Origin: a virus
IMG/VR virus record: IMGVR_UViG_3300020463_000019
Location: 2,293-66,292 of that record
Reading direction: 5' to 3' (one strand)
DNA: 64,000 bases
In this document: positions 27,484 to 63,696 of the stretch, piece by piece
Layout: each line of letters begins with the position of its first letter
Position numbering within the stretch: the first letter of the stretch is position 1
Made by a program: the position numbers and the translations under genes
The notes under the pieces: model-generated
What the model was told of the DNA's origin: nothing
The model's input: the letters and a program-made list of their open reading frames with translations, nothing else
Databases searched by the model: none

Positions 27484-27498
27484 TAAATACTTTAAATA
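27484..27498 (+). promoter_or_regulatory. Tandem T4-like late promoter motifs
   Basis: TAAATACTT twice (TAAATA at 27484 and 27493) before 27518. Confidence 0.5.
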
Positions 27499-27517
27499 CT
27501 TTAAGGGGTAATAAAAA

Positions 27518-39208: not shown

Positions 39209-39220
39209 AGAAAGTATAAT
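39192..39220 (+). promoter_or_regulatory. Perfect consensus sigma70 promoter; probably a leaderless transcript
   Basis: TTGACA (39192-97), 17 bp, TATAAT (39215-20); ATG at 39226 with no RBS. Confidence 0.8.
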
Positions 39221-39225
39221 AAAGT

Positions 39226-44736: not shown

Positions 44737-45232
44737 GTACGAACCATTAACATTCACACCCACCTGGGATGATGAATTTAAAAAATTTCCTTACAAGAGA
44801 CAACCGTTTGGTGATTTTGATCAGTTAGCAAAATGGCATAGATTAGGATTTACACATAAAAACTTTACAGGTGAAATGTGTCCTGATCAAAGTATTACAC
44901 CAGAATGGGCAAAAAATATTGGTAAGGTTCTTGCCTGGAAGGATTGTGGTTATACTTTCTATCGTATGCAAGTTGGTGATATACTTCCGCCACATGCAGA
45001 TCATTTTAACAAGTACAAGGAACTATTTCATATTGCAGACAGTGAAGATGTAATGCGTTGTATAGTTTTCTTGGAGGATAAAAAACCAGGACACATGAGT
45101 GAGTTTCAAGGACTAGGCGTAGGTGATTGGCACCGAGGAGATGCAATTGCTTGGAGAGGAACTGTAGAACACAGTGCATTGAATATAGGATATGAACCAA
45201 GATACACATTACAAATTACTGGACATGCTTGA
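44714..45232 (+). CDS. 2OG-Fe(II) dioxygenase-like
   Basis: 'PPHAD' HxD, distal 'EHSALN', 'RYTLQITG'. Confidence 0.7.
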   Translation: MVILDKYEYEPLTFTPTWDDEFKKFPYKRQPFGDFDQLAKWHRLGFTHKNFTGEMCPDQSITPEWAKNIGKVLAWKDCGYTFYRMQVGDILPPHADHFNKYKELFHIADSEDVMRCIVFLEDKKPGHMSEFQGLGVGDWHRGDAIAWRGTVEHSALNIGYEPRYTLQITGHA

Positions 45233-45923
45233 GTATGATGAACTTGATATATTAAAACGCATGGGTTATACATGGAATGACCCGTACGATATTATATACA
45301 AGTTTGAAGATGCATTGTCTGAATATACTAAAGCACCTTATGTTGTGACAACAGATTGTTGTACACATGCAATGGAGTTATGTTTTCGTTGGCTGGCTTA
45401 TAATAATCAAATGCCAGCACAGGTAACAATACCTGAACATACATATCTTAGTGTTCCAATGATGTTAGCCAAACTTGATATTAAATTTAATTTTACACAA
45501 AATAATTGGTTAGGCGAATATCAATTAAGTGGTAGTCCTATATGGGATAGTGCAAGGTTATTAGCAGAAGGTATGTATAAACTACCTGGCTACTATCAAT
45601 GTTTAAGTTTTGGAATAGGAAAACCATTGACAATTGGTCGCGGAGGTGCTATACTATTAGATAGTAAAGAAGCCTATGAATGGCTTAGTCGTGCAAGAAG
45701 CGACGGTAGAGATTTAAAAATAAAACCATGGAACAATCAAACATTTGATTTCATTGGTTATCATTATAATATGACAGTAGAACAAGCCGCAAAAGGTTTA
45801 ATCATGTTGGATACATATGAAACTAACTTTGACTTCTTTGAAGACCCAATGTTACTATATCCAAATTTAAGTGAATGCGTAGGTGAAATAAATGATCATA
45901 CAGACACACAACGAATGGGATAA
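45225..45923 (+). CDS. DegT/DnrJ/EryC1/StrS PLP aminotransferase (short)
   Basis: 'CCTHAMEL', 'WDSA', 'LSFGIGKPLTIGRGGAIL' (PLP Lys); start is 45225 or 45192. Confidence 0.8.
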   Translation: MLEYDELDILKRMGYTWNDPYDIIYKFEDALSEYTKAPYVVTTDCCTHAMELCFRWLAYNNQMPAQVTIPEHTYLSVPMMLAKLDIKFNFTQNNWLGEYQLSGSPIWDSARLLAEGMYKLPGYYQCLSFGIGKPLTIGRGGAILLDSKEAYEWLSRARSDGRDLKIKPWNNQTFDFIGYHYNMTVEQAAKGLIMLDTYETNFDFFEDPMLLYPNLSECVGEINDHTDTQRMG

Positions 45924-46899
45924 ACTAAACAGTATCGTATTAGGAGATGTTGCAGGAGCAAGGTTTCCAAAATATGATGATGTGTTTACTCGAGTAGCCA
46001 AAGGAAGTTCTTGGACTGAAACTGCACAACCTGTAGGTCCTATTAGCCAAGTAGTTATAGAAGAAACTAAAGTAGAATTAGACTTTATGAAACAAACACT
46101 TGAACAAGCAGGTGTTACTGTATACCGTCCAAGGCAATTAGACTTTCAGCAAGTTGTGCATGGTTATAGATACTTCAGTGATGGTATGTATAATTATTGT
46201 CCACGAGATGTAATATTAATTATAGGCAACTATGTAATTGAAACTCCTTGCTTATTTCATAGTAGACAACATGAAGGTGAAGCATACCGAGATATACGCT
46301 ACAGTGGATTAGAACAAGGTTGTAAATGGATCAGTGCTCCTCAGCATAACTTACCTGCTCATGAAGTATTTGATGCTGATGGTAACCTAACTGAAAAGAC
46401 CCCAATCTTTGATGCGGCTAATGTAATGCGTTTTGGAAAAGATATATTATATTTAAAAAGTCAAACAGGGAATGCCGCTGGTGCTAGATGGCTTAGTACA
46501 GTACTAGGATCTGAATATACTGTACATGTATGGGATAAAGTATATGCATACGCACATATTGACAGTACTATTTCCGCACTCAATGAAGAAACTATTTTAC
46601 TTAACAAACCAAGAATTAAAACTGCTGGGCAACTTCCTAAGTTTCTTAGACAGAAAAAGAAAATATGGCTGAGCGAAATTGAGCATACTGACTTCCATGT
46701 TTATCCTTATGCAAGTAAATGGATTGGAATGAATGTGCTTAGTATTAATCCAACTACTGTGATGGTAGATCCAAGACAAACATCATTAATCAAAAGATTA
46801 GAAAAAGAAAAGTTTGATATTGCACCAGTGCAACTAACACATAGTAGAACACTTGGTGGTGGACATCATTGTTGTACATTAGACTTACACAGAGGATAA
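45892..46899 (+). CDS. Amidinotransferase (glycine/inosamine-phosphate amidinotransferase family)
   Basis: 'HNEWDKL', 'CPRD', 'FDAAN', 'HID', 'GGGHHC' (Asp-His-Cys triad). Confidence 0.85.
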   Translation: MIIQTHNEWDKLNSIVLGDVAGARFPKYDDVFTRVAKGSSWTETAQPVGPISQVVIEETKVELDFMKQTLEQAGVTVYRPRQLDFQQVVHGYRYFSDGMYNYCPRDVILIIGNYVIETPCLFHSRQHEGEAYRDIRYSGLEQGCKWISAPQHNLPAHEVFDADGNLTEKTPIFDAANVMRFGKDILYLKSQTGNAAGARWLSTVLGSEYTVHVWDKVYAYAHIDSTISALNEETILLNKPRIKTAGQLPKFLRQKKKIWLSEIEHTDFHVYPYASKWIGMNVLSINPTTVMVDPRQTSLIKRLEKEKFDIAPVQLTHSRTLGGGHHCCTLDLHRG

Positions 46900-46900
46900 T

Positions 46901-48412
46901 ATGAGAGTACTAGGAGTAAGTGCAGGCTTTCATGATGCAGGATTATCAGTTATTGCTGATGGCGAAATACTATTTGCAGGACATAGTGAAAGATATAGCA
47001 AACAAAAACACGATCATCATTTATGTCCAGAAATTGTTACAAAGGCATTGGACTCTGTGTTTCCGTCTGAGATTGATGCTATTGCTTATTACGAAACACC
47101 ATGGCTTAAAAAGACAAGAGAAATATATGCAGGGCAAGGCATTGAAGGCGGTGATAGAAGTAGCACATGGACTACTAAGGGTGCATTGAAAAAAGAGTTT
47201 GGAGACTTGTTACCTAACGCACCAGTGCATACATACCGGCATCATCATACACATGCCGCCGCTGGCTTTCAAACAAGTCCTTTCAAAGACGCAACAGTTG
47301 TTGTCATTGACGCTATAGGTGAATGGGAAACTATTACAATATGGTACGCATACTATGATAACAAAGGTCGTGCGTGTTATGAAAAGTTGTGGCGACAACG
47401 TTATCCACATAGTATTGGATTGTATTATAGTGCAATGACCGCACGACTTGGATTACGTCCACTTGATGAAGAATATATTATGATGGGTATGGCTGGTTGG
47501 GGTACTGCTAGTGGTTTAAATGAAAACTTGATTGAAAGTGAATTTGTACATGATATGGCAACACTACGTTTCAAACAAAATTTACACGCTGGCATTGACA
47601 AAAACTTTATGATCAATATGAATGAATATGATATTGCCGCTAGAGCTCAGTATAGTGTTGAAAAAATGATAGACAATGTAATGTCAAGAGCAAGAGGCTT
47701 TAATAAAAGTCGTAACCTAGTTTATATGGGAGGAGTTGCACTTAACTGTTTATACAATCGCAAACTAGGAGACTTCTTTGACGATATATGGATTATGCCA
47801 AACCCTGGAGATTGTGGAAGTAGTTTAGGTGCCGCGGCACTTACATATGGCAAAAAAATTGAATGGGATAATCCTTACTTAGGAACATTCATATATGGAC
47901 CTTATCCTATCAGAGACTTGATAGATGAACTACAAACAAATAAAATTGTAGGAGTAGCAAACGGAAGAGCAGAGTTTGGACCAAGAGCGTTAGGCAATAG
48001 AAGTTTACTAGCCGATCCACGGGGTCCTGAAATTAAAGATAAAGTAAACGAAATAAAACGTAGACAAAAGTTTAGACCGTTTGCTCCTATGATTCTCGAA
48101 GAGCATGTACATGAATACTTTGACATGCCTGAGAAAACACCTACGTCGCCTTATATGCAAGTAGTTGCCAGATGTAAAAAGCCAGACGAGTTTCCTGCAA
48201 TTATACACGTTGACGGAACTAGCAGAGTACAAACAGTTGGCAAAGGTTGTTATGGCAGTGGTGTACGTTATTTACTAGAACAATGGTATGTGTTAACAGG
48301 TTGTCCTATGTTGCTTAACACAAGTTTAAATATCAGAGGGGAGCCAATGGTTGATACAAGAGAAGATGCAGATAGATTTGAAAAAGAGTATGGAGTAAAA
48401 GTATGCAGTTAG
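46901..48412 (+). CDS. Carbamoyltransferase (NodU/CmcH/TobZ family)
   Basis: 'FHDA', 'HHHTHAA', 'DAIGE', 'GGVALNC', 'EFGPRALGNRS', 'RPFAP', 'LNTSLN'. Confidence 0.9.
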   Translation: MRVLGVSAGFHDAGLSVIADGEILFAGHSERYSKQKHDHHLCPEIVTKALDSVFPSEIDAIAYYETPWLKKTREIYAGQGIEGGDRSSTWTTKGALKKEFGDLLPNAPVHTYRHHHTHAAAGFQTSPFKDATVVVIDAIGEWETITIWYAYYDNKGRACYEKLWRQRYPHSIGLYYSAMTARLGLRPLDEEYIMMGMAGWGTASGLNENLIESEFVHDMATLRFKQNLHAGIDKNFMINMNEYDIAARAQYSVEKMIDNVMSRARGFNKSRNLVYMGGVALNCLYNRKLGDFFDDIWIMPNPGDCGSSLGAAALTYGKKIEWDNPYLGTFIYGPYPIRDLIDELQTNKIVGVANGRAEFGPRALGNRSLLADPRGPEIKDKVNEIKRRQKFRPFAPMILEEHVHEYFDMPEKTPTSPYMQVVARCKKPDEFPAIIHVDGTSRVQTVGKGCYGSGVRYLLEQWYVLTGCPMLLNTSLNIRGEPMVDTREDADRFEKEYGVKVCS

Positions 48413-48597: not shown

Positions 48598-49278
48598 ATG
48601 TTTGATATTATTTTTATGAGCTACGAAGAGCCAAATGCTGAAGAGCATTGGCAAGCAGTTAAGGACAAGTACCCATGGACACAAAGAGTACATGGTGTAA
48701 AAGGTTTGGTTAATGCTCATAGAGAGTGTGCTAAACTAAGTCGTACTCAAATGTATTATCATATTGAAGCAGACAACGAACTAACTGAAGACTTCAATCC
48801 TAGTTTTAAACCTGGTGCATACGACAGAGACACAGTGCATGTATGGCGTGCTAGAAATAGTGTAAACAACTTAGTGTATGGTTACAGTGGAATCAAACTG
48901 TTTCCTAAAAAGAATGTACTAGCATTAGATCCTGATAAAGTTGTTGACTTTACAACAAGTGTTAGTGATAAATTTAAAGCAGTACAAATTGTAGGTAGTA
49001 CAGTTCACTATGATACTGACCCATACAATACTTGGAAGGCCGCATTTAGAGAGTGTGCTAAACTAAGTGCAAGGATTATTGATAGACAAAAAGACAAAGA
49101 AACAAGTGAACGTTTAAATACTTGGTGTACAGTTGGAGTAGGAGACTATGCCGACTACAGTATAGCTGGTGCAATTGATGGCTGTGATTATGGCAAATAT
49201 GCTACACAAGATGATATGGTAAAGGTTAATGACTGGGAATGGCTGAGGAATAGATTTGACGAAACAACTAAAGGATAG
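48598..49278 (+). CDS. Putative glycosyltransferase-like protein (paralog of 31126..32061)
   Basis: 'MSYEEPNA..RVHGVKG..IEADN..AFRECAKL'. Confidence 0.55.
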   Translation: MFDIIFMSYEEPNAEEHWQAVKDKYPWTQRVHGVKGLVNAHRECAKLSRTQMYYHIEADNELTEDFNPSFKPGAYDRDTVHVWRARNSVNNLVYGYSGIKLFPKKNVLALDPDKVVDFTTSVSDKFKAVQIVGSTVHYDTDPYNTWKAAFRECAKLSARIIDRQKDKETSERLNTWCTVGVGDYADYSIAGAIDGCDYGKYATQDDMVKVNDWEWLRNRFDETTKG

Positions 49279-49963
49279 TATAATCAGCGACCAGGATATG
49301 TTTACTCGTATGAGTTTATTTACTGGCAATAGTTCATTTGACGATTTACGCAAAACAATTGATAACACAGATGCAATACTCGATGATGCATTTAGCGTAG
49401 GACAATTAAAAAGCAAACGTTGGCTTATAGATAGTTTAATAGAAAGTGGCGGGTATGAACTTGGCACTGTTTTTCTATGTGCTGGATGGTATGCTACACT
49501 TGCTAGTATGTTGTTTAACAGTATACTTTCAATACGGTGCATTAGAAGTTTTGACATTGATCCTAATTGTGCTACTATTGCCGAAACAGTTAATAGGAGT
49601 CAAGTGTTAAATAGTTGGCAGTTCAAAGCAACAACTGCGGATATAATGAACCTGGAGTTTGACAACTACACATATAGTACACAACGAAGCGATGGTACTA
49701 GTGTAGAACTATGTGAAAGTGCAGATACTATTATAAACACAAGTTGTGAACATATACCAAACTTCAAAGAATGGTACGATAGAATCCCGTATGATAAGTT
49801 GGTTATATTACAAAGTAACAACTACTCTGAGTTACCTGAACATGTAAATTCAAGTAACAGTTTAGAAGAGTTTGTAGATAGTGTTCCACTAATAGACACA
49901 TGGTACAAAGGTGAACTAGAGTTAAGTAAGTATACGAGGTATATGGTAATTGGAATTAGATAA
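49256..49963 (+). CDS. Class I SAM-dependent methyltransferase-like
   Basis: 'FLCAGWY', 'SFDID', 'INTSCEH'. Confidence 0.65.
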   Translation: MTKQLKDSIISDQDMFTRMSLFTGNSSFDDLRKTIDNTDAILDDAFSVGQLKSKRWLIDSLIESGGYELGTVFLCAGWYATLASMLFNSILSIRCIRSFDIDPNCATIAETVNRSQVLNSWQFKATTADIMNLEFDNYTYSTQRSDGTSVELCESADTIINTSCEHIPNFKEWYDRIPYDKLVILQSNNYSELPEHVNSSNSLEEFVDSVPLIDTWYKGELELSKYTRYMVIGIR

Positions 49964-50174
49964 ACTATCACTGCGTGAACAACAAAAAGAATGTGCTAGA
50001 GCCTTAGCATCTATGAGTGCTACCAACAACAATATTCATCAATTCAACAAACAAGCACATCACAATAGTCACAACTGGTATTCTGCAGTCATTAACTGGT
50101 ATGTAGAACAGTATGGCGACTTACCCTCAAAGACTGGACCAGGACAAGAAGTTAAGTTAATCTTGGACAACTAA
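49950..50174 (+). CDS. Hypothetical protein
   Basis: 74 aa, TTG start, coupled to the next gene. Confidence 0.5.
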   Translation: MELDKLSLREQQKECARALASMSATNNNIHQFNKQAHHNSHNWYSAVINWYVEQYGDLPSKTGPGQEVKLILDN

Positions 50175-51100
50175 TGATTAATAGTATTACTACTGACGTT
50201 CCGAGCAGTTTAGATATTGAATGGGTAATCAACAATTACTGCAATTTTAATTGTAGTTATTGCACTCCTGACTTATTTGGTAACACTAGTAGAGCATTAG
50301 ATTTACCTATAGCAGTTGAGTTTTTTAACACAGTACATCAACAACATCCAGGAATAAAAATGCTAAGTCTCAGTGGAGGAGAACCTACACTGTGGAAGCA
50401 TCTACCTGAGTTTGTTGATAGTGTAGCAAGTAACTACTTCTTTCATATTATTACCAACGGTAGTAGAACGCTTGACTGGTGGCGTAGATTCATGTATAAA
50501 AGAAAGATAGACAGGATAACAATAAGTTTACATGTAGAGCAAATTAATTTTGATAAAACATTTGCCAATATAGAATTTTTACAAAACCAAACAGACTTAA
50601 CTTTATTAGTATTACTAAAGCCTGGGTCAAAGGAAATACTAGAACAATTTGTAAAACGTATAACTGATGCAAAAATAAATGCAAGTATAAAAATAAAACC
50701 ATTAACCTCGCATGATAATAGAAGTGTGTACAACTACAACAAAGACGAAAAATCATGGTTACAACACTTTAGTTACAACAAAGCAAACATAAATTCCTAT
50801 AGTGGTATTGCTAAAAGACTTATAGTTGATGGCAAAGAGCATAGCATGAGTTATGCTTACAAACTAGTTGCAGGTGGATTAAATAACTTTAGAGGTTGGA
50901 ACTGTAACTTAGGAAGTAGCCGAATGTTTATTTGGCACGATGGAAATGTGTTTCCTGCTACATGTAAAACTGCTATGGCAAGACCGATTGGCAATGTTTT
51001 TTCTAATACGTTAGAAGTTAAAACATCAAGTACAAGATGTGCTGATGAGTTTTGTCATTGTGCACCTGATATTAGGATTACAAAAAGTAGAAATGTATAA
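50174..51100 (+). CDS. Radical SAM enzyme with C-terminal Cys cluster
   Basis: CNFNCSYC, SGGEPT, TNGS; C-terminal C..C..CADEFCHC. Confidence 0.85.
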   Translation: MINSITTDVPSSLDIEWVINNYCNFNCSYCTPDLFGNTSRALDLPIAVEFFNTVHQQHPGIKMLSLSGGEPTLWKHLPEFVDSVASNYFFHIITNGSRTLDWWRRFMYKRKIDRITISLHVEQINFDKTFANIEFLQNQTDLTLLVLLKPGSKEILEQFVKRITDAKINASIKIKPLTSHDNRSVYNYNKDEKSWLQHFSYNKANINSYSGIAKRLIVDGKEHSMSYAYKLVAGGLNNFRGWNCNLGSSRMFIWHDGNVFPATCKTAMARPIGNVFSNTLEVKTSSTRCADEFCHCAPDIRITKSRNV

Positions 51101-52172
51101 ACTAGAAGACATAAAGCAAATACATTTAGAAGTGACACAGAAGTGTCAGGCCGCGTGTCCTATGTGTGATCGCAATATGAATGGCAAAGGTATCAACCCG
51201 CATATTGATTTGAGCGAACTTAGTTTAGAAGACTGCGAAAAAATGTTTCCGCCAGAGTTTATTGCACAACTAGATAGTATGTATATGTGTGGTAACTTAG
51301 GTGATCCTATTATAGCAAAAGACTGTTTACAAATATTCCAATACTTTCGCAAACACAACAAAGACATGTGGTTGAGTATGAACACAAATGGTGGAGCACA
51401 AATACCAGCATGGTGGGCAGGACTTGCTAGTACTCTTAATCACAGAGGTGCAGTTATCTTTAGTGTTGACGGTTTAAAAGATACAAATCATATTTACAGA
51501 CAAGGTGTAAGTTGGGACATAGTAGAACGTAGCATGAGAGCATTTGTAAAAGGTGGTGGTCGAGCAAGATGGGACTTCCTTATATTTGAACACAACCAAC
51601 ATCAAGTTGAACGAGCAAAAGCTCTTGCTATGGAGATTGGTTGCGAAAACTTTATTCCTAAGAAGACAGGAAGATTTGTTACTGCGACTACACAACCTAA
51701 AGAAGAACATGAAGGAAGCAATAGAAAAGGCACTGAGTCAATTGAGCTTAAGAAGCCTGACGATAAATATGTTAATAAAGCTCTTACTACTCAGCAAAAA
51801 TTAATTGAAAAATACGGCGACATGGACAACTACTATGACGCAGTTCCTATTAAATGTAAAGTTGCAAGTTCAGGTAATCTTTTTATTACTGCTGAAGGCA
51901 TGGCAATGCCGTGTTGTTGGACTGCTGGTCGTATGTATAAGTGGTGGCATAAAGATCCTAGAGTCGAACAGATATGGAACTTCATAGATGCACATGGAGG
52001 CAAACAAGGTTTAAGTGTAATTGAAAATGGACTACCTGCAGTATTTGACTCGGGTATATTTGACAGTATAAATGATAGTTGGAACAAAACAAGTTGTGCC
52101 GATGGCAAGTTAAAAGTATGTGCTATGAAGTGCGGTATTGAGTGGGATCCTTTTACGGAGCAATTTAAGTGA
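51093..52172 (+). CDS. Radical SAM/SPASM-like enzyme
   Basis: Start MYKLED at 51093; CQAACPMC, CGNLGDP, FSVDGL; C-terminal PCC..CAMKC. Confidence 0.85.
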   Translation: MYKLEDIKQIHLEVTQKCQAACPMCDRNMNGKGINPHIDLSELSLEDCEKMFPPEFIAQLDSMYMCGNLGDPIIAKDCLQIFQYFRKHNKDMWLSMNTNGGAQIPAWWAGLASTLNHRGAVIFSVDGLKDTNHIYRQGVSWDIVERSMRAFVKGGGRARWDFLIFEHNQHQVERAKALAMEIGCENFIPKKTGRFVTATTQPKEEHEGSNRKGTESIELKKPDDKYVNKALTTQQKLIEKYGDMDNYYDAVPIKCKVASSGNLFITAEGMAMPCCWTAGRMYKWWHKDPRVEQIWNFIDAHGGKQGLSVIENGLPAVFDSGIFDSINDSWNKTSCADGKLKVCAMKCGIEWDPFTEQFK

Positions 52173-53599
52173 TAAACAAAACTGAAGACAAAGATCGTTA
52201 CAATGATATCAGCGAAACATTCTGTGCTTTGCCATGGTTACATTTAAGTAGTAGACCAGATGGCAAGATGCGTACTTGTTGTACTAGTAATGCAAGTAGT
52301 GTACAAGATCCAGACAGTAGTAAAAAAGTAGGTGGTGGAGAAGTTGGTGTTGTAAAGAACAATGATGGCGTGCCTGCTAACTTTAATCACACAAGTTTAG
52401 AAGATGCTTGGAATAGTGACTACATGAAGAATGTACGCAAGATGATGTTGCGTGGAGAAAAGCCAGCACCTTGTCTAAAATGCTATAAGGAAGAAGAAGC
52501 AGGACATCTAAGCAAACGTAATTGGGAAACAAACTATTGGGGTAATAGATATAACTTACACAACTTAGTAGAAGAAACAGACATTACAGGAAAGATACCA
52601 CCAAAGATACGTTACATTGATCTGCGTATGGGAAGTAAGTGTCAACTAGCATGTGTCATGTGTAGTCCACATGATAGCACAGGATGGATTAAAGAATGGA
52701 ATAAAATCTATCCGCAAATAACAAATGAAAAATTAAAAAATACAAGTGCTTGGGATAACAAAGGTCGTAATGATGGTGCAAGTTATAATTGGCACAAAAA
52801 CAATCCTAAGTTTTGGAGTGACTTGTACGAACAGATTCCGCACATGTATCAATTGTATTTTGCTGGTGGTGAAAGTTTAATCATTGATGAACACTATGAC
52901 TTGTTAGAAGAATGTATTAAAAATGGCTACGCAAAGAACATTGAGTTGCGTTACAATAGTAATGCAGTTGAATGGCGTGATGACTTGTTTGACTTGTGGG
53001 CAGAATTTAAACGTGTGAGATTCCACTACAGTATAGACGCACATGGAGAACACAATGACTATATACGCTACCCAACAGATTGGAAACATCAAGAAGAAGT
53101 ATTCTGGAAGTTGGACAATACTAGTGACAATGTAGAAGTAACAACCGCTACAACTATTATGGCACTCAACGTTGGATACATTCCAGAGTTTGTGCAATGG
53201 AAAGTAGCACAGAACTTTCGTAAGATAAACAAATGGCCGTTAGGAGCAGGAGGTATTAACATGCATTTTGCTTACTGGCCACCTCAGTTAAATGTTAAAG
53301 TATTGCCGGCTGAAGTAAAACAAACTATAACAGACAAGTACGAACAAGAGTTCATACCTTGGATGATGGATAACTGGCAAAGTTTTACAGGAGTCAAAGA
53401 AGCAGGACTAACACAAGAACAATGGCTAAGTGCTCCATACGGAGTAAAAAGATTTCGTGGCATTATCAAGTTTATGAATGCAGAAGACTGGACACAACGT
53501 TTACCAGAAACAAGACAGTACTTAAACCTAGTAAACAAACAACGTGGATGGGAAACAAAGTTTCTTGAAGTCTTTCCGTTGTTCAAGGAAGTGCTATGA
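52169..53599 (+). CDS. Radical SAM enzyme with N-terminal Twitch/SPASM-like domain
   Basis: CALPW..TCC..CLKC; CQLACVMC; AGGE. Confidence 0.85.
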   Translation: MINKTEDKDRYNDISETFCALPWLHLSSRPDGKMRTCCTSNASSVQDPDSSKKVGGGEVGVVKNNDGVPANFNHTSLEDAWNSDYMKNVRKMMLRGEKPAPCLKCYKEEEAGHLSKRNWETNYWGNRYNLHNLVEETDITGKIPPKIRYIDLRMGSKCQLACVMCSPHDSTGWIKEWNKIYPQITNEKLKNTSAWDNKGRNDGASYNWHKNNPKFWSDLYEQIPHMYQLYFAGGESLIIDEHYDLLEECIKNGYAKNIELRYNSNAVEWRDDLFDLWAEFKRVRFHYSIDAHGEHNDYIRYPTDWKHQEEVFWKLDNTSDNVEVTTATTIMALNVGYIPEFVQWKVAQNFRKINKWPLGAGGINMHFAYWPPQLNVKVLPAEVKQTITDKYEQEFIPWMMDNWQSFTGVKEAGLTQEQWLSAPYGVKRFRGIIKFMNAEDWTQRLPETRQYLNLVNKQRGWETKFLEVFPLFKEVL

Positions 53600-54939
53600 C
53601 AGAACTAAACATGGATAGGTTTTGTGTTGTTCCTTTTGTGCAGTTAAACACAAGAGGCAAAGGTGATGCACGAGTATGTTGTAGTATCGATGGATTAAAC
53701 TATGGCGTACCAAAACATTTAACACTTGATCAAGTTAATCCAGATACATACAACGGCAAAGACACAGAAGTATATAACCTACAACATGATGATATATCAG
53801 ACTTATGGAACAGTGACTTTATGCGAGACTTCCGACAAAAGATGTTGGCAGGTGAATATATACCCAACTGTGAGTTTTGTTACAGAATGGAAAACAGTGG
53901 ACTTAGTAGTAAGCGACTAGGCAAGAACAAAATATTCTTAGAGCGAACACTTCCGTTCTTACAAGACTATGCAAACGCTAACGGACATGTTGACAAAATG
54001 CCACAGTGGTGGGAGATACGTTTAAGTACCAAGTGTAACCTAAGTTGTATTATGTGTGCTCCAAGTTTGAGTACTATGATGTATAAAGAATATGCAAAGT
54101 GGCGTAAGGATGGAACAGGAAGTCAATACACAAATGGAGCATTGGCTATTGCAGAAGACAGTGGCGAAGAGTTTTTAAGTAAGAGTGAGTTCTTTCGTGA
54201 TCAAGTTACAAGTAATCTGCAACATGTTTTATACATGGAGTTTAGAGGTGGTGAAGTATTTGCAGACAAAGAAAGCATAGACTTTATTGAAGCAGTAAGT
54301 TATACAGAATATGCCGCAGGCATTACGCTAGATATCTCAACAAACGCTACACTAATTAATAAAAGAGTAGTAGACATACTTAATAGATTCAAAGGTGGTA
54401 AACTAAGACTTAGTATTGATGCGTACAAAGAAGCAGATGAATGGATACGCTATCATACAGACTGGAATGCAGTAATTAGAAGTATGGAAATAATGCATGG
54501 CTTACACAACAAGTGGAAGTTCCTAACACAAACAACAGTACAATTTTTAAACTGCTTAACATTAGATGAACTAGTAGTGTTCTTTAATGATTACATTATG
54601 GAACAACGAGACGAAAGATTCTTTTTAGGATTTACAAGTGTAAGAGGTAAAGACTGGTTACGACATGAGATGGTACCTAATAGTATTCGTGAACCAGCAG
54701 TACAACGCATGAAAGAACTAAAACGCACATTACCTATATTCCAAACCAATTGGAAAAATTCAGAACAACTTAACAAAGCAATGGATCAACTTATAAGTGT
54801 ATTAAGCGATACAGAATATACAGAAGAAGCAAAAGTAGAACTTGCACCTAAAGCAAGAAACTTTTTTGAAACACTAACTAGAGTTCGAAAGAAAGATTAC
54901 TTCGAACAGTTTCCACACATTAATCAGAGTATAGCATGA
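53596..54939 (+). CDS. Radical SAM enzyme with N-terminal Twitch/SPASM-like domain
   Basis: CVVPF..VCC..CEFC; CNLSCIMC; RGGE. Confidence 0.85.
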   Translation: MTELNMDRFCVVPFVQLNTRGKGDARVCCSIDGLNYGVPKHLTLDQVNPDTYNGKDTEVYNLQHDDISDLWNSDFMRDFRQKMLAGEYIPNCEFCYRMENSGLSSKRLGKNKIFLERTLPFLQDYANANGHVDKMPQWWEIRLSTKCNLSCIMCAPSLSTMMYKEYAKWRKDGTGSQYTNGALAIAEDSGEEFLSKSEFFRDQVTSNLQHVLYMEFRGGEVFADKESIDFIEAVSYTEYAAGITLDISTNATLINKRVVDILNRFKGGKLRLSIDAYKEADEWIRYHTDWNAVIRSMEIMHGLHNKWKFLTQTTVQFLNCLTLDELVVFFNDYIMEQRDERFFLGFTSVRGKDWLRHEMVPNSIREPAVQRMKELKRTLPIFQTNWKNSEQLNKAMDQLISVLSDTEYTEEAKVELAPKARNFFETLTRVRKKDYFEQFPHINQSIA

Positions 54940-56363
54940 CTGAAGTAGATCATACCAAACACACCCGATGTCCTATACCATGGATGAGTCAAAGTTATAG
55001 AGCCAACGGAGACATTAGAGTATGTTGTCAAGCACAACATGGACCTACTGGCGGTATACTTAAATCACCAGAAGGTAAAGTATTGAATGCTCGTGACAGT
55101 GACTTAAATGAAATACGCAACGCACCACTAGAGAAAGACATCCGAAGTTCGATGATACGTGGCGAGAAACATGTAGAGTGTACACGTTGTTGGACTGAAG
55201 AAGATGCTGGTATGACTAGTAGACGTATCATAGAAAATAAACTATGGACCAAGGGCGGTTGGGATCAACTGCGTGAAGAAGACAAGTATACCTGGGACGA
55301 GTTAATGAGTTATACACAAGAAGACGGAACCATAGATACAGATGCTATTGGCAACAACTTCTTTGATGTACGCTTTGGAAACTTGTGTAATCTAAAGTGT
55401 AGAATGTGCGGTCCAACTGACAGTAGTATGTGGTATGACGAACAAGTTAAACTATGGGGCAACACATACAAAGACAGTCACGGTACTGTTACACTTGTAC
55501 CTAATGCTAAAGGCAAACATGTACCTGAAGTAAATGTTTATGACTGGCATGAAAGTAAACACTATTGGACACAAATGGAATGCATGATTCCTAATATCCG
55601 TAAGTTGTATATTGTAGGTGGTGAACCATTTATGATTGATCAACACTATGCGTTTTTGCAAAAGTGTGTAGATGGTGGCTATGCTAAAAATATCATTGTA
55701 GAGTACAACAGTAATGTAACAAACATTCCACAACGTGCTTGGGACATATGGAAACATTTTAAACGCATAGGCATTGGTGCTAGTATAGATGCAGTAGGAG
55801 ACTTAAACTATTACATACGTCCACCAAGTAGATTTGAAAAGATATGGAGCAACCTTAAAAAACTAAGTGCCGCTGAAGGTAACTTTAGAATGTGGTTGGC
55901 TACAACTATTAACATATACAACGTTTGGGTACTACCAGACATTATGAAGTTCTACATTGAGAACAACATGCCTAGAGTAAATGATGATGACTTCAAACCT
56001 ATTATGACACCACACCCATTACACGGGCCACAGTTCTTAAACATAAGAGCATTACCAAAGCCTATCAAAGATTTAATTGCTGACAAATACGAAAAGCAAT
56101 TGCCACAGGTTTATGAAGTGATTGATCAACACATTCAAGATCCTAATAGAAATCATCACAGTAAAAGACAAGCAAAACTTATATTAGAAACATACAAAGA
56201 CTTTATGTATGCCAAAGACTTTTCAGATAAACTATACAAGTTCTGGGAACACACTAACAGACTAGATAAAATACGTGGACACTACTTCAAAGATTACTGT
56301 CCAGAAATGTATGAGATGTTGTTAGAACATGCACACCCAGACTCTTGTAAGGCACCTTATTAA
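54936..56363 (+). CDS. Radical SAM enzyme with N-terminal Twitch/SPASM-like domain
   Basis: CPIPW..VCC..CTRC; CNLKCRMC; VGGEP. Confidence 0.85.
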   Translation: MTEVDHTKHTRCPIPWMSQSYRANGDIRVCCQAQHGPTGGILKSPEGKVLNARDSDLNEIRNAPLEKDIRSSMIRGEKHVECTRCWTEEDAGMTSRRIIENKLWTKGGWDQLREEDKYTWDELMSYTQEDGTIDTDAIGNNFFDVRFGNLCNLKCRMCGPTDSSMWYDEQVKLWGNTYKDSHGTVTLVPNAKGKHVPEVNVYDWHESKHYWTQMECMIPNIRKLYIVGGEPFMIDQHYAFLQKCVDGGYAKNIIVEYNSNVTNIPQRAWDIWKHFKRIGIGASIDAVGDLNYYIRPPSRFEKIWSNLKKLSAAEGNFRMWLATTINIYNVWVLPDIMKFYIENNMPRVNDDDFKPIMTPHPLHGPQFLNIRALPKPIKDLIADKYEKQLPQVYEVIDQHIQDPNRNHHSKRQAKLILETYKDFMYAKDFSDKLYKFWEHTNRLDKIRGHYFKDYCPEMYEMLLEHAHPDSCKAPY

Positions 56364-57484
56364 TGCACTATCTCAAGCCGGAAGAAATAAAATATCTACA
56401 AGTAGATCACAACAGTGGTTGTAACCTACGTTGCCCACAGTGTGCTAGAACACACAACGGTGCTACTATACCTGGCTTGAAAAATGTAGATCTAACAGTG
56501 GATCACTACAAAGACTTCATTATACACACCCCTAACTTGAATTTTATTATGTTCTGCGGTAACTATGGCGAAGTTGTTGTTAGCAAGACCTTTTTAGAAT
56601 GCCTACAATATGTAGTAGAAAATACCACTGCAAAGATAGTAATAGCCACTAACAGTAGTGCCAGAGATGAAAGTTGGTGGAAAGAGCTCGGTCTAATGCT
56701 AAAGGGTAGAGGAAAAGTTAACTTTAGTATAGACGGATTGAGCGATACAAATCACTTGTATCGTGTGAACGCAGACTTTGATAAATGTCTGCGTAACGCA
56801 CAAGCGTTTATAGATGCAGGAGGGATAGCACGTTGGGATTACTTGGTATTTGCACACAACGAACACCAAGTAGACGGTGCAGTAGAACTAGCAAAGACTA
56901 TGGGTTTCAAAGACTTTGCAGTCAAACTCACAAACCGTTTTGTCAACGACGAACAATATAGGCATAAGAAGGCAGCAAGTGAAAGTAGTAAAGTGGTAAC
57001 ACGAAAGAGTAGTTACACACTAAGCATGGCAAGTGATGCCAAGTATACTGCCAGTGGAGTAGATGATAATACCAATATCATCAACAAGTACGGCAGTTGG
57101 AACAACTATGTGAATGCTACCCCTATTAGTTGTAAGTGGCGACCCGGAGGGCAAATATTCTTAGACTTTGAAAACAGAGTATGGCCTTGTACTTGGACTG
57201 CCAGTGGATACTTGCATCACGGAGACAACACACAAAAGACACAAGCACTACAGTTGTTTGAACGCTACGGAGAAGACTTCAATTGTTTAGACAACAAAAG
57301 CCTACCTGAAGTACTTGAACATTCATACTTTGCCCGAGACTTTTGTGCTAGTTGGAGTAGCACTATGACAGATGCTGTTCCTAAGTTGTTTGCTTGTGGA
57401 AGAACCTGTGGCACAGACTACAACTTCTCTAGTGCTCATGGTGCTAACAGAAGGATACTAGAACTTGACAAACTGGCACATTAA
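56363..57484 (+). CDS. Radical SAM/SPASM-like enzyme
   Basis: CNLRCPQC, CGNYGE, FSIDGL; C-terminal C..WPC..CGRTC. Confidence 0.85.
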   Translation: MHYLKPEEIKYLQVDHNSGCNLRCPQCARTHNGATIPGLKNVDLTVDHYKDFIIHTPNLNFIMFCGNYGEVVVSKTFLECLQYVVENTTAKIVIATNSSARDESWWKELGLMLKGRGKVNFSIDGLSDTNHLYRVNADFDKCLRNAQAFIDAGGIARWDYLVFAHNEHQVDGAVELAKTMGFKDFAVKLTNRFVNDEQYRHKKAASESSKVVTRKSSYTLSMASDAKYTASGVDDNTNIINKYGSWNNYVNATPISCKWRPGGQIFLDFENRVWPCTWTASGYLHHGDNTQKTQALQLFERYGEDFNCLDNKSLPEVLEHSYFARDFCASWSSTMTDAVPKLFACGRTCGTDYNFSSAHGANRRILELDKLAH

Positions 57485-58559
57485 AGTCCTAGACCTAGAG
57501 CCTAGTACACAATGTAATGCGGCTTGCCCTATGTGTGCAAGAAGTTTTCAAGGTGTGCAGAACAAAAACGTGCCTGTTGCCAATCTTCGAGTGAGTGCAT
57601 TACAAACACTACGCCCATACTTAAACGAACTAGAACGACTGAGCATGTGTGGCAACTATGGAGACCCTATACTCAATCCACAGTTAACAGACATCATAGA
57701 CTACTGTCTCAGTATAAACTCTAGTTGCAGTACTATCATACACACCAACGGTGGTGCTAGAACAGAGAGTTGGTGGCGAGAACTAGCAGAGTATCCTTGG
57801 CTTAAAGTAAGATTTGGCATAGATGGATTAGCAGATACAAATCACTTGTATAGACGCAAAGTGCGTTGGGATATACTAGAACGCAACTATAGAGCATTCA
57901 TAGATGCTGGTGGTGTTGCTGAATGGAAGATGATAGTATTTGGTCACAATCAACATCAAGTAGAGGCATGCAGACAACGTGCAATTGATGAAGGATTCTC
58001 AAACTTCAGTTATGTTGTAACCAACAGATTTACACAAGGCAACAAGACAGTGTTTACCATGCACCCTGACGCAGACGATAGTACTCCACTAACAGCCGCA
58101 GACTTGGACTTTGATCCAAGCAAGTTCTCTGCAAGTCATGCACAAAGGGTAAAAGGTGTTTACGACACAGGTGCATACTTGGAAGAAGGCAAACAACCAC
58201 AAAGCCACAAGCCTACAGCTATACCACAGAGAAAGTTTGCTTACACAGATAGTTGGCAACCTCAACAAAACAACATAAGTTGTTATACACAACAAGAAGG
58301 AATAGTGTATGTAAGTGCGGCTGGTGACTTGTATCCTTGTTGTCATCTAGGCTATCCATATGGTGGACAAAACAAATATGATGATTTAGCATGGCTGGAT
58401 AAGAAGACTATTAACTTGTACAACAACAGTGCTGAACAAATCTTTGGTTGGTTTGATGAAGTAGAAAGACGCTGGAGTCAAAGCAACTGCTTGGGTACAT
58501 GCACTAAGGTGTGCAGTACTGAAGGCAAACCCAATCTATATGCAGTGGAAGCCTTATAA
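57465..58559 (+). CDS. Radical SAM/SPASM-like enzyme
   Basis: CNAACPMC, CGNYGDP, FGIDGL; C-terminal YPCC..CTKVC. Confidence 0.85.
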   Translation: MTNWHIKVLDLEPSTQCNAACPMCARSFQGVQNKNVPVANLRVSALQTLRPYLNELERLSMCGNYGDPILNPQLTDIIDYCLSINSSCSTIIHTNGGARTESWWRELAEYPWLKVRFGIDGLADTNHLYRRKVRWDILERNYRAFIDAGGVAEWKMIVFGHNQHQVEACRQRAIDEGFSNFSYVVTNRFTQGNKTVFTMHPDADDSTPLTAADLDFDPSKFSASHAQRVKGVYDTGAYLEEGKQPQSHKPTAIPQRKFAYTDSWQPQQNNISCYTQQEGIVYVSAAGDLYPCCHLGYPYGGQNKYDDLAWLDKKTINLYNNSAEQIFGWFDEVERRWSQSNCLGTCTKVCSTEGKPNLYAVEAL

Positions 58560-60614: not shown

Positions 60615-61172
60615 ATGCAATATTTGATTGCTGGTAATCCTGCGTATGGATTATCTGCCGCCATTGCCGATCGCATAAGCACAGACCAATGGCACAGTAG
60701 AAGTTTCAATGATGTAGATCTAACGAGCGTAGCGAGTCAAAAGCAGTTTGCAAACGATAGTCTACTAGTAGATGTAACCATAGTAGTAAGTTGCCTCTGG
60801 GGTTATGAACAGGTTAAACTAGTAGAACGAGTAGCAAAGGCCTGGGCGGAACATCAGCACGATGGATATCTCGTAGTGCTAGGAAGTAGTGCCGATACTC
60901 CAGTTAAAGGAACTGCTTGGGGATACCCTGCAGAGAAGAAGGCCTTACGAGCATACTGTAGACAACTAAGCCAAATGAGTGCAGGCGAGAATTCACATAG
61001 ATTCCGTTGTACATACCTCTCTCCGGGTAATATGCACACACCCAAACAGGATGAGAAAATGCCAGGTGTAGTTAAACTAAATACAGCGTATGTCGCAGAT
61101 GTAATAGTCTGGTTGACAAATCAGCCAAAACATGTTAATATAAGTGAACTAACCCTGGACGCTATTCCTTGA
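60615..61172 (+). CDS. Short-chain dehydrogenase/reductase (atypical)
   Basis: 'AGNPAYGLS', 'GSS', 'YPAEK' YxxxK, 'SPG'. Confidence 0.7.
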   Translation: MQYLIAGNPAYGLSAAIADRISTDQWHSRSFNDVDLTSVASQKQFANDSLLVDVTIVVSCLWGYEQVKLVERVAKAWAEHQHDGYLVVLGSSADTPVKGTAWGYPAEKKALRAYCRQLSQMSAGENSHRFRCTYLSPGNMHTPKQDEKMPGVVKLNTAYVADVIVWLTNQPKHVNISELTLDAIP

Positions 61173-62329
61173 CAACTGACAACTATCCAAGCAAGCCGTG
61201 TGCTGCTCCTCTAACCAGTGTAGCAATAAAGCCCAACGGCCGGCTTCGCCCCTGTTGTTGGTGGACAGATGATGTAGAACCCAGACTAGAAGATCGTGGT
61301 ATAAAACAGTATATCTGGCAAGACCTCGCGGCTATGTATAAGAACATGGAAAAAGGCATATGGCCAAAAGGTTGTAACAAGTGTAATACCACACAAAAGA
61401 GTCGGTACGATCACTATGAAAGACGCTATCCTAATGCCAGAAACGAACCTCAACGACTAAGAACAATGGACCTCCGCTTTGGTACACTGTGTAATGCCAG
61501 TTGTATTACATGTAGTAGTACTAATTCAAACTATTTCTACAAAGTAAAACGGCAGGGTCTTTATCTAACACCCGAACATCAACCATTTGACAGCCAGGCC
61601 AAGATCGATGCATATGAAGCAGAACAAGATTGGTGGAAAAAAGAACGTAATATCAATGACTTATTAGAGAACCTTGACACAGTGGATCACCTCTATATAA
61701 CTGGTGGTGAACCTACTATCAATCCTATGTTTCATAGTATACTAGAACACTTACATAAACAAGGTCGAACCAAGAGTGTAAGCATAGAAATAAACACCAA
61801 TGGCACCAACCTCAACCGTCACTTTAAACAATTGGTACAACCATTTAAAAAATTAGTTCTTTTTAGCATAGATGGCCATGGAGTGTTAAACAATGCAATG
61901 CGATATCCCACCAAGTTCTCCGCAGTAGAAAAGAACATACTAGCATACAGTGATATAGATAGTGGCCTAGGTGACGAAGTAATAGTAACGCCCACTGTAT
62001 GTGTGTTTAATTTCTTTGAATTAGTCAAGTTATTCGACTGGTGTGCGTTCAACAACATAGAAGTAACCCATCAATTGAACGTTCTTAATAGGCCAAGATG
62101 GCAAAGTTTGAGTCAATTACCTGACAATCTACTACAGCAAGGATTAACACAGTTGCGAACCGCCGGCTATGATCACCATGCAAACACTATACAGAGTCGT
62201 ATACAGGGTGTGAGTTATGAAAAAGATCTTTTATTAACATGGGAGGATACTAAAAAGCGTACACTACAGTGGTTTAACAGTAGACAGTTTAATCCAAGTA
62301 TTACAGGAATACCAGATATCAATGCGTAA
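61169..62329 (+). CDS. Radical SAM enzyme with N-terminal Twitch/SPASM-like domain
   Basis: CAAP..PCC..CNKC; CNASCITC; TGGEPT. Confidence 0.85.
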   Translation: MTTDNYPSKPCAAPLTSVAIKPNGRLRPCCWWTDDVEPRLEDRGIKQYIWQDLAAMYKNMEKGIWPKGCNKCNTTQKSRYDHYERRYPNARNEPQRLRTMDLRFGTLCNASCITCSSTNSNYFYKVKRQGLYLTPEHQPFDSQAKIDAYEAEQDWWKKERNINDLLENLDTVDHLYITGGEPTINPMFHSILEHLHKQGRTKSVSIEINTNGTNLNRHFKQLVQPFKKLVLFSIDGHGVLNNAMRYPTKFSAVEKNILAYSDIDSGLGDEVIVTPTVCVFNFFELVKLFDWCAFNNIEVTHQLNVLNRPRWQSLSQLPDNLLQQGLTQLRTAGYDHHANTIQSRIQGVSYEKDLLLTWEDTKKRTLQWFNSRQFNPSITGIPDINA

Positions 62330-62574: not shown

Positions 62575-63696
62575 ATGGCTTATCATAGTTTAGATAGTAT
62601 CATAGACATGCATGTAGAAATATCAAATAGATGTAATGCCGCTTGTCCTATGTGTGCTAGAAATGATTTCGGCGGTGCTACTAAGAGTGATCTACAGTTA
62701 GATGAATGGACTACCGCAGATATTGATAGCATCTTTACGGGTGAACATTCAAACTTACAAAACGTTATGTTTTGTGGTACTCATGGTGATCCTTGTGTAG
62801 CAAAGAATAGTTTATATGCAGTAGATACTATCAAGAACAAGTATGATGCTAGTGTAGAGTTCTACTCTAATGCTAGTATGCGAGACAAAGAATGGTGGGC
62901 TAACTTGGGTAGTTTACTCAATAATAAGTATCCGCATCACACGCATTATAGACGTAATGACTTGGCTATCTTTAGTATAGACGGATTAGAAGATACCAAT
63001 CATCTATATAGACGCCGTACAAATTATAAAAAGATAATAGAGAATGCTAGTGCTTTTATAAGTGCTGGTGGTATTGCCCGCTGGGATTTCATAGTGTTTA
63101 AACACAATGAACATCAAGTTGAACAGGCTGAACACATAGCAAGTGAACTAGGATTCAAACAATTTAGAGTGCGTAAGACTAGCCGTTTTGATTATTCACC
63201 GGACGGTCCAGATAAATGGCGAGTAAAAGATAAGAAAGGTAACATAGAATACTACATAGAACCACCCAGTAAAAAATGGCGTAACCCCGAGAGCAACAAA
63301 TTTGTTGCATTAAAAGCGTCCCACGGGAGCATTGAGAACTACTACAATGTTGCACCCATTGAATGTTTATATAAAAATGAATTTAAAAGAATATATGTAA
63401 ATGCATATGCCAAAGTATATCCTTGTTGTTATATAAGTGATGATAGTTATCCACACAAAAATGCCATATATAAAGATACACAGGCTAAGATCTTTTCGCG
63501 TTGGGGCGACGAATTCAACAGTTTAAGAAGCAATAGTTGGCAGGAAATATTGGATCATGAATGGATGAATGAAGAATTAGAACGCAGTTGGGGAACCAAT
63601 CTAGCAGGAGGTAAACTAATGCGTTGTGCTAGAACTTGTGGAAAAGGTTATTCACCAATTAAATCGCAGAGCACGGATACAGTATTAAATGGATAA
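62575..63696 (+). CDS. Radical SAM/SPASM-like enzyme
   Basis: CNAACPMC, CGTHGDP, FSIDGL; YPCC..CARTC. Confidence 0.85.
   Translation: MAYHSLDSIIDMHVEISNRCNAACPMCARNDFGGATKSDLQLDEWTTADIDSIFTGEHSNLQNVMFCGTHGDPCVAKNSLYAVDTIKNKYDASVEFYSNASMRDKEWWANLGSLLNNKYPHHTHYRRNDLAIFSIDGLEDTNHLYRRRTNYKKIIENASAFISAGGIARWDFIVFKHNEHQVEQAEHIASELGFKQFRVRKTSRFDYSPDGPDKWRVKDKKGNIEYYIEPPSKKWRNPESNKFVALKASHGSIENYYNVAPIECLYKNEFKRIYVNAYAKVYPCCYISDDSYPHKNAIYKDTQAKIFSRWGDEFNSLRSNSWQEILDHEWMNEELERSWGTNLAGGKLMRCARTCGKGYSPIKSQSTDTVLNG

Follow-up and report, generated by a model that had tools for sequence, protein, structure and literature searches.

A hypervariable array of divergent radical SAM genes downstream of the tail genes of a marine jumbo phage, with a candidate role in carbohydrate tailoring

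Why would a phage carry eleven radical S-adenosylmethionine (SAM) enzymes, seven of them in an unbroken row? The question is raised by IMG/VR virus record IMGVR_UViG_3300020463_000019, of which we analyzed the last 64,000 of 66,292 bases (positions 2,293 to 66,292; hereafter the window, whose coordinates are used throughout, with genes named by their starts, as in g52169). A preliminary description of this DNA had claimed a tandem array of seven radical SAM (rSAM) genes at 50174-58559, part of a set of eleven or more in three subfamilies, and had proposed that the paralogs act like an assembly line on one class of substrate. We found the array and the subfamilies to be as described. The fixed assembly line, however, fits poorly: two of the enzymes belong to a core that is conserved among related phages, while the rest are swapped rapidly from a very large pool. 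The reading that we favor, with about as much belief as doubt, is that the array forms the variable part of a carbohydrate-tailoring island in the tail and host-recognition region of the phage, where it would carry out combinatorial radical tailoring of a carbohydrate.

All eleven rSAM open reading frames (ORFs) lie on the + strand at the starts first noted, and each contains one CxxxCxxC motif near the expected position. This motif is frequent by itself, with 32 matches in a six-frame translation of the window (14 from the + frames, 18 from the - frames), so the support for eleven genes rests on profile matches rather than on motif numbers. Pfam PF04055 matches 11 of 11 at E <= 0.0025; four exceed its gathering score of 29.5 bits (47, 35.1, 30.7 and 53.4 bits), and the remaining seven score 18.5-25.5 bits. 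Comparison of profiles with the PDB matched many rSAM structures, supporting membership of the superfamily, and the NCBIfam model NF033640 (N_Twi_rSAM) picks up all 11 candidates in the record. The seven genes at 50174-58559 are contiguous, with neighbors overlapping by 1-20 nt. One of them is listed from a GTG at 51039, but its probable start is an ATG further in, at 51093. The eleventh gene, at 63689, is truncated by the end of the record itself, and not merely by the edge of the window.

The eleven genes fall into three types (all + strand). Identity is 19-28% within type A, 29-39% within type B and 32% within type C; across types it is confined to short motif matches. The five type A genes, at 41062..42417, 52169..53599, 53596..54939, 54936..56363 and 61169..62329, match NF033640 from end to end at 329.5, 412.9, 281.9, 362.8 and 207.4 bits, respectively, against a cutoff of 170. 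The type B genes are those at 51093..52172, 56363..57484 (29-39% identical to the other type B proteins), 57465..58559 (PF04055, 35.1 bits) and 62575..63696 (30-32% identical to the others). Type C consists of 50174..51100 (PF04055, 47 bits) and the truncated gene at 63689..64000 (53.4 bits, with CNFSCSYC at residue 26). With NF033640, types B and C score no more than 30-46 bits, through the core alone, and they are captured by no curated NCBIfam model. The motifs by which the subfamilies had been told apart reappear in the family consensus sequences: 'CxLPW', 'PCC' and 'CxxC' in type A; 'CGNxGDP', 'SIDGLxDTNHLYR', 'WPCC' and 'CxxTC' in type B; and 'WxxxNxCNYxCSYC' in type C.

The residues expected to matter for catalysis are intact in these otherwise divergent proteins. 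In 96 type A sequences with a mean column identity of 16%, C19, C37, C102, C105, C158, C162 and C165 are invariant. The GGE SAM-binding motif is invariant in type A (G233, G234 and E235) and in type C (G68, G69 and E70), and type B has the variant 'CGNxGDP' aligned at the same place. In type B the CxxxCxxC is invariant and the extra cysteines are C-terminal, four of them at least 90% conserved. Type C proteins, small and SPASM/Twitch-like at about 310 aa, have an invariant CxxxCxxC in the alignment and a C-terminal 'CxxxxCxC'. Types A and B share a catalytic core that includes an 'IDG...Y.R...W' stretch (hhalign 99%, E = 6.8e-18).

Type A is predicted to carry an N-terminal Twitch domain with putative cluster-ligating cysteines. 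Pfam SPASM matches the N-terminus of three type A genes, and the type A profile aligns, over its positions 6-74, with the Twitch domain at the C-terminus of BtrN (residues 184-257; E = 4.9e-7); BlsE matches the core (E = 3e-11, profile against PDB). In sequence, the relationship to BtrN-type enzymes does not extend over the full protein, since the matches cover the Twitch domain only (type A) or the N-terminal core only (types B and C), with E from 1e-3 to 5e-7. A search of the PDB with single protein sequences gave no match for type A and weak core matches only for types B and C, and ten family representatives carry generic names only ('radical SAM/SPASM' and 'AslB/TPR'). Because solved and curated relatives give no reaction, the argument about the substrate rests on gene context.

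The possibility that the genes all belong to one housekeeping family, which the preliminary description had named as the finding that would overturn it, was examined and rejected. None of the eleven reaches the cutoffs of the MoaA, QueE and NrdG models, which range from 131 to 325 bits: MoaA scores 39-40 bits (cutoffs 284 and 325), QueE 36.9 (260) and NrdG 38.4 (131), with matches to the N-terminal core only. The family to which type A does belong is large, with at least 10,048 representatives (50% clusters) matching our type A profile at E <= 1e-30. Many of its best matches (P0241-P0271) are proteins of 750-1400 aa with two full N-terminal-Twitch rSAM units in tandem.

We scanned viral contigs with g52169 and obtained at least 112 related stretches at 58-95% identity, on contigs of up to 330 kb, of which 80 were kept. 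Together with the window and two bacterial loci, these contain 592 rSAM ORFs: 348 of type A, 158 of type B and 86 of type C. The motif is absent from only seven of the 592, mostly ORFs at the ends of loci. Against the closest locus (L001; dS 0.5-0.9), dN/dS is 0.057 for g51093, 0.050 for g52169, 0.042 for g53596, 0.068 for g54936 and 0.074 for g56363; that is, 0.042-0.074 for these five of the array genes. For type C it is 0.16-0.20 (g50174), measured against more distant loci. The array genes are under purifying selection and none is degenerate. The set consists of intact paralogs of the SPASM/Twitch class, divergent as had been claimed; the prospect that most are degenerate is not borne out, with dN/dS at 0.04-0.2 and the catalytic residues invariant.

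Arrays of this kind are a regular feature of the related genomes, but their membership is not. Relatives have 10-19 matches to the rSAM model per genome, the larger ones 14-19, concentrated in one region; in a 330 kb relative that is 93% complete, all 14 lie within 46-89 kb. The densest array packs 13 rSAMs into 21 kb. At 50% identity, the 587 viral rSAM ORFs form 158 clusters, of which two are universal: that of g52169, found in 82 of 82 loci (by construction), and that of g51093 (listed as g51039), found in 81 of 82. The gene g51093 itself has 2837 homologs at E <= 1e-5. The remaining window rSAMs occur in 1-28 loci each. For example, the clusters of g54936, g53596, g56363, g50174, g57465 and g62575 are found in 28, 20, 7, 6, 3 and 2 loci, respectively, and g61169 is a singleton. 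The conserved core consists of rSAMs g51093 and g52169 with three genes just upstream of the array, g48598, g49256 and g49950.

We measured turnover as the Jaccard index of the downstream rSAM repertoire in pairs of loci, binned by the identity of their cores. The mean index is 0.99 at core identities of at least 99% (10 pairs), 0.53 at 90-95% (19 pairs), 0.20 at 85-90% (29 pairs) and 0.07 at 80-85% (195 pairs), and 65% of the pairs in the last bin have no member in common. Recent duplication does not appear to be the source of this variety. In a FastTree phylogeny of 98 type A sequences, in which branches are long and deep forks unsure, the five type A genes of the window form five separate deep lineages, each beside an ortholog from another phage, which indicates that the arrays were assembled from an old pool. 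Two conserved rSAMs with rapid exchange of the others look like combinatorial, strain-specific tailoring, rather than the single fixed pathway first proposed.

What the array might tailor is suggested by its neighbors. Upstream of it, at 37760..48412 (+ strand), lies a sugar-nucleotide and tailoring module whose gene ends overlap. It encodes a phosphomannomutase, an NDP-sugar dehydrogenase and a NodU-type carbamoyltransferase, together with proteins that resemble a sugar-1-phosphate nucleotidyltransferase, RuBisCO, a cupin hydroxylase, DegT (a short protein) and an amidinotransferase. Further upstream, at 28525..32061 (+), the glycosyltransferase (GT)-like genes g28525, g28865, g29695 and g31126 stand in the same order as ORFs 354-350 of Ralstonia phage RsoM2USA, to which they are 34-44% identical; g28865 has a weak Mannosyl_trans3 match. 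In the window as a whole, the sugar-nucleotide enzymes are clear and the glycosyltransferase assignments are weak leads. All sizeable ORFs from 28.5 kb to the end of the window are on the + strand, and gene neighbors overlap or nearly abut from 39226 to 58846. Proteins of the window have at most one hydrophobic segment each, and none is rich in transmembrane segments; with no membrane or export protein encoded, the chemistry would be cytoplasmic.

The same context recurs in the relatives. When the 150 companion-ORF clusters of the viral loci were compared with Pfam, 55 families were matched, and the 25 commonest include GDP-Man dehydratase/epimerase, UDPG/GDP-Man dehydrogenase, RmlD, cytidylyltransferases, DegT and carbamoyltransferase, as well as 2-oxoglutarate oxygenases, nitroreductase and B12-binding rSAMs. 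None of those 25 is a peptide-maturation, peptidase, RRE or transporter family. Some relatives also encode what such enzymes consume or require: a full-length MetK (SAM synthetase, 425 bits, G402:C1:31869-32945) is encoded at a distance of about 14 kb from the array in two genomes (G402 and G404), and an IscU/NifU-type Fe-S scaffold (176 bits, G403:C1:22688-23059) about 5 kb from the array in a third. Flavodoxin was found in none of five relatives. The phages thus seem to invest in rSAM chemistry, and the large Fe-S investment suggested in the preliminary description gains some color from these genes.

Among cultured phages we found two small counterparts of the locus. In RsoM2USA, genes corresponding to g28525, g28865, g29695 and g31126 are followed by one rSAM gene and by counterparts of g48598 and g49256, in that order, downstream of baseplate genes and of a 2541-aa virion protein. 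The rSAM of this mini-cluster, ORF349, is 39.8% identical to g41062 over 97% of its length, in a clade with a support of 100. In Synechococcus phage S-SCSM2R, one rSAM gene, a short aminotransferase-like gene and an amidinotransferase gene are interleaved with five annotated glycosyltransferases.

Cellular genomes seldom match: three samples, which numbered 401, 133 and 401 genomes with the center genome of each included, gave 3, 1 and 2 matches. The matches are metagenome-assembled genome (MAG) G001, whose contigs are discussed below, genomes G102 and G173, and one short contig, G720. G102 has four tandem rSAMs of the N-terminal-Twitch type between Wzm, RmlC, RmlD, TylF-type methyltransferases and a WbsX glycosyltransferase, which is an O-antigen cluster; one of the copies is fused in frame to Wzt, and the contig also carries dnaE and accA. 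In G173 the rSAM gene adjoins a GT2 gene and a GDP-Man-dehydratase-like gene. The context therefore favors sugars over peptides as substrates, in the window, in its relatives and in the bacterial O-antigen cluster; of the two kinds of substrate that had been envisaged, the peptide is the less supported.

From this context we infer a carbohydrate substrate, and the island could work as follows. Soluble enzymes (the nucleotidyltransferase, phosphomannomutase, NDP-sugar dehydrogenase, aminotransferase-like and amidinotransferase-like proteins and the carbamoyltransferase) would make activated, modified sugars, which the GT-like proteins would join. At its [4Fe-4S]/SAM site, each rSAM would remove hydrogen, as an atom, from one particular carbon of a sugar that is either activated or already part of an oligosaccharide; the auxiliary Twitch-type cluster may handle the electron, and the outcome could be oxidation, epimerization, deoxygenation or formation of a C-C bond. 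The conserved pair, type B g51093 and type A g52169, would do the common step with g48598, g49256 and g49950, and the accessory rSAMs, recombined from a large and old pool, would give the lineage-specific product. Keto or radical intermediates could be processed by the SDR-like g60615 and by the aminotransferase-like and methyltransferase-like proteins. The most likely destination of the product would be virion proteins, or else a polymer of the host surface that is built in the cytoplasm.

Several findings weigh against this reading. The bacterial evidence is thin, with two informative cellular contexts examined (G102 and G173), and the Wzt::rSAM fusion occurs in one of the 120 best Wzt-like matches listed, namely that of G102's own cluster. 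For the window's own genes, assignment to glycosyltransferases is weak. None of the three types has a member of assigned reaction, and the nearest solved structures match the generic core or the Twitch domain only. Enzymes of the SPASM/Twitch class more commonly mature peptides, and PapB, SkfB and anSME-type models are among the weak NCBIfam matches of these genes. TPR repeats, which bind proteins, were found in 3 of 10 long family members scanned, and an FkbM methyltransferase domain in one of the 10; a conserved small protein, g49950, heads the core.

The last three points are also those that favor the alternative that survives best, although we consider it unlikely: that the rSAMs modify peptides or proteins, either as maturases of a small phage peptide, in the manner of peptides that the ribosome makes and that are modified after translation (RiPPs), or by crosslinking or epimerizing giant fiber and tail proteins. 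The weak model matches extend to WgkB and StsB, the PDB structures matched by profile include SkfB, CteB and YydG, and the array lies downstream of fiber genes that include a 4323-aa ORF. A SPASM rSAM is reportedly able to form thioether crosslinks in a protein (PMC13692751). Yet the maturase models (PapB, SkfB, StsB, WgkB and others) score at most 44.5 bits against cutoffs of 300-650, and peptidase, RRE and transporter families are absent from the 25 commonest families of the companion clusters, while the bacterial and cultured-phage contexts are those of carbohydrates.

Neither of two small proteins looks like a precursor. The core protein g49950 (49950..50174, + strand; 74 aa), whose first 14 nt fall, in a different frame, within the end of g49256, was recovered from 70 of the 80 related loci with identities of 71-93%, with 18 residues invariant in 38 sequences and a TTG start in 35 of 51 copies. 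It has no cysteines, however, and it is conserved along its whole length, with no leader/core pattern. A cysteine-rich ORF of 77 aa at 59507-59740, in a gap of about 725 nt (59418-60144), had been put forward as a possible substrate. This proposal is not supported: the ORF is found in 0 of 80 related loci, and a contig about 93-96% similar to the window (run X7) skips 58934-59426 and 59477-59629, interrupting it. In the same contig comparison, short-sided joints between paralogs were set aside as cross-matches on conserved motifs.

We also doubt the next alternative, in which the cluster makes a diffusible small molecule during infection, similar to an aminoglycoside or aminocyclitol, and the variable rSAMs tailor it. 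The DegT-type aminotransferase-like, inosamine-amidinotransferase-like and NodU/TobZ-type carbamoyltransferase proteins and the NDP-sugar dehydrogenase resemble such pathways. The BtrN-like Twitch domain and the B12-binding rSAMs of relatives also speak for it, and the window encodes no lipid-carrier or export proteins. In the available text of PMC12801897, the authors name the homologous S-SCSM2R trio 'antibiotic synthesis genes'. A surface structure is a better match, however, for genes that turn over as serotype loci do and lie in the tail and host-recognition region. GT-like genes are abundant, and bacterial homologs sit in an O-antigen export cluster. Scans of the window showed no resistance or efflux gene, and the DegT-like protein is short, with a partial profile match. 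This protein (45192-45923, + strand; 243 aa) covers positions 165-239 of the 360 in the profile; its homolog in S-SCSM2R, 'AHBA synthase', is likewise short at about 195 aa.

Phages use QueE-type rSAM, amidino-transfer and carbamoyl-transfer chemistry for base modification. Hypermodification of the phage DNA with sugar, amidino or carbamoyl-type bases, as a defense against host restriction, nevertheless seems improbable here. Type C has weak N-terminal matches to QueE (36.9 bits against a cutoff of 260; QueE-like PHROG, E = 5e-5), and homologs of the amidinotransferase-like protein exist in Campylobacter phages, but the ORFs of the window that were scanned, from a record covering 19% of the genome, gave no match to QueC, QueD, FolE, DpdA, a hydroxymethylase or a DNA glycosyltransferase, the array sits in a structural region, and bacterial homologs lie in an O-antigen cluster. 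That most copies are redundant or decaying duplicates with no separate functions is very improbable and largely refuted: Pfam scores fall below the gathering cutoff in 7 of 11 and copy number differs greatly among relatives, but cluster ligands and SAM motif are invariant in the 96 type A sequences, dN/dS is low, the paralogs are 19-39% identical, in separate deep lineages with orthologs in other phages, and the motif is missing from so few ORFs.

Carbohydrate tailoring thus remains the reading that we prefer, and parts of it have precedents. Islands for host recognition that hold sugar genes are known in outline from phages, and so are Twitch rSAMs with carbohydrate substrates. The closest parallel in print is the hypervariable host-recognition cluster of pelagimyophages, which, according to the available text of PMC7029224, averages 44.6 kb and holds tail fibers, lipopolysaccharide (LPS)-type glycosyltransferases and variable rSAM cassettes. 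Like this cluster of pelagi- and cyanomyophages, the region described here follows tail and baseplate genes and differs among close relatives: the baseplate and fiber genes at 15-28438 precede it, and the repertoire index is 0.07 at 80-85% core identity. LPS-type sugar genes are a possible further likeness: here the sugar-nucleotide enzymes are clear and the glycosyltransferases are weak leads. The pelagimyophages are T4-like, however, whereas our phage has its relatives among jumbo myoviruses such as Atu_ph07 and PBECO4, and the rSAM model matches 10-19 times per genome. In the available text of PMC7029224 the rSAMs are mentioned in passing, in one sentence and without analysis; this was the only mention in print that we found, and we found no analysis of the arrays. 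What is new apart from that sentence is their scale, their hypervariability and the dominance of an uncharacterized N-terminal-Twitch family and its sister type.

Other systems resemble the array in part. The five type A genes conform to NF033640 along their length, with an N-terminal four-cysteine domain and a CxxxCxxC core, but that model describes a subfamily with no assigned reaction, whereas here phage arrays reach 13 genes per 21 kb and include two more rSAM types. BtrN, the Twitch rSAM dehydrogenase of butirosin, has a homologous Twitch domain, and the aminotransferase-, amidinotransferase- and carbamoyltransferase-type genes of the phage neighborhood add to the likeness. In contrast to BtrN and BlsE, the Twitch domain of type A precedes the core instead of following it, so the likeness is one of domains and not of family membership.

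The O-antigen cluster of G102 is similar in its four tandem N-terminal-Twitch rSAMs, methyltransferases and glycosyltransferase in an operon-like block. It differs in having Wzm/Wzt export and dTDP-rhamnose genes, which the phage lacks, and its three full-length copies in the tree are recent local duplicates, whereas the phage paralogs are deep. RsoM2USA shares the gene order around the g41062 ortholog, and S-SCSM2R shares an rSAM with a short aminotransferase-like protein and an amidinotransferase among glycosyltransferases, but each has one rSAM and no array; as far as the available sources go, the genes of these mini-clusters are unannotated or labeled 'antibiotic synthesis'. The RiPP maturases (SkfB, PapB, CteB and anSME) share the superfamily, an auxiliary Fe-S domain and, in some RiPP clusters, tandem occurrence. 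Unlike them, the array has no conserved precursor that we could find in 80 loci, its 25 commonest companion families include neither RRE nor peptidase, its scores lie far below the cutoffs of the maturase models, and the auxiliary domain of type A is N-terminal with four cysteines.

Carbohydrate-acting rSAMs are few and individually prized; BtrN, DesII, AprD4, NeoN and GenK are examples. A family of at least 10,048 clusters with no characterized member, linked by context to sugars and present in sets of as many as 13 divergent copies within 21 kb, would therefore be a rich source of new reactions. Given their place in the host-recognition region and their serotype-like speed of turnover, the arrays may bear on host recognition or on changes of the host surface by large marine phages. 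We put forward tentatively, as a possibility well short of probable, that a large clade of abundant marine jumbo phages uses interchangeable rSAMs as a combinatorial toolkit, with which sugars of a completed glycan on the virion or the infected cell would be altered in stereochemistry and in oxidation state: a fast-evolving 'radical glycan code' for host recognition or the exclusion of competing phages. If so, the N-terminal-Twitch family (more than 10,000 clusters) and its type B sister would be a major, mostly viral reservoir of carbohydrate radical chemistry. Since two phages in culture have a version with one rSAM, the question can be put to the test.

The genes of the core other than the rSAMs, and a few of their neighbors, can be described briefly. 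The first core gene (48598..49278, +) stands beside the core rSAMs in most related loci and is 41% identical to a neighbor gene in RsoM2USA; it has no Pfam or PHROG match and is found in Atlas viral clusters only, with a weak GT2 lead (0.87). It is a paralog of g31126 (31126-32061), likewise without a Pfam or PHROG match, and counterparts of the two flank the RsoM2USA rSAM. The second (49256..49963, +), a possible SAM-dependent methyltransferase, has its cluster in 78 loci and is 31% identical to its RsoM2USA neighbor; its Atlas lead, Methyltransf_31 at 0.95, is carried by 21% of cluster members, and it has no Pfam match. A short SDR-like protein (60615..61172, +) occurs in 21 related loci and weakly matches SDR oxidoreductase models, always below cutoff. 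Three ORFs, g58568, g58942 and g60144, are unique to this phage and absent from related loci.

The RuBisCO large-chain-like gene (39226-40371, +; 381 aa), between small ORFs and the phosphomannomutase gene, matches PF00016 at 113 bits; it falls below the cutoffs of the form III, MtnW and OiaX models and has no match in 50,697 phage records. Two DUF6071 proteins (34247-35092 and 36681-37427) and a dihydroorotate-dehydrogenase-like TIM-barrel protein (35206-35913) are also encoded inside the cluster. Some related arrays hold class B (B12-binding) rSAMs, nitroreductases and fatty-acid-desaturase-like proteins, and some a PNP_UDP_1 phosphorylase-family protein, for which a role as a 5'-deoxyadenosine nucleosidase is speculation.

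The record itself is a fragment of the genome of a marine jumbo myovirus. Its CheckV completeness of 19% implies a full size of about 350 kb. Baseplate, giant fiber-like and tail genes at 15..28438 (+), including PHROG baseplate hub and wedge proteins, precede the sugar and rSAM cluster. The wedge protein (1183 aa) shares 35.7% identity with its counterparts in the jumbo phages Phosso and Atu_ph07, and 35.6% with the one in the PBECO4 group. These hub and wedge homologs point to a jumbo myovirus as the source and bear out the earlier labeling of the DNA as that of a phage. Assignment to a gammaproteobacterial host ('Gammaproteobacteria'), suggested by public MAG G001, was rejected: its contigs C3 and C12 (L081) differ from each other, both come from jumbo phages, and both carry a gene for a baseplate wedge. 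With contig C4 they give 21 rSAM-model matches, a binning artifact and no host signal.

Searches of the window for promoters and terminators gave no signal. The motif of T4-type late promoters, TATAAATA, has 2 matches against 8.25 expected, sigma-70-like sites number 71 against 64.8, and terminator-like sites 8 against 10.6; Rfam and tRNA scans of the window found no match. Among the 24 runs listed, no RNA run carries the stretch. The stretch recurs nearly letter for letter, whole or in part, in contigs of other seawater samples, from 20 DNA runs in 13 studies. A single ORF of 4323 aa at 10054-23025 (+) follows the baseplate wedge gene, in the same position as the gene for the 2541-aa virion protein, ORF361, in RsoM2USA.

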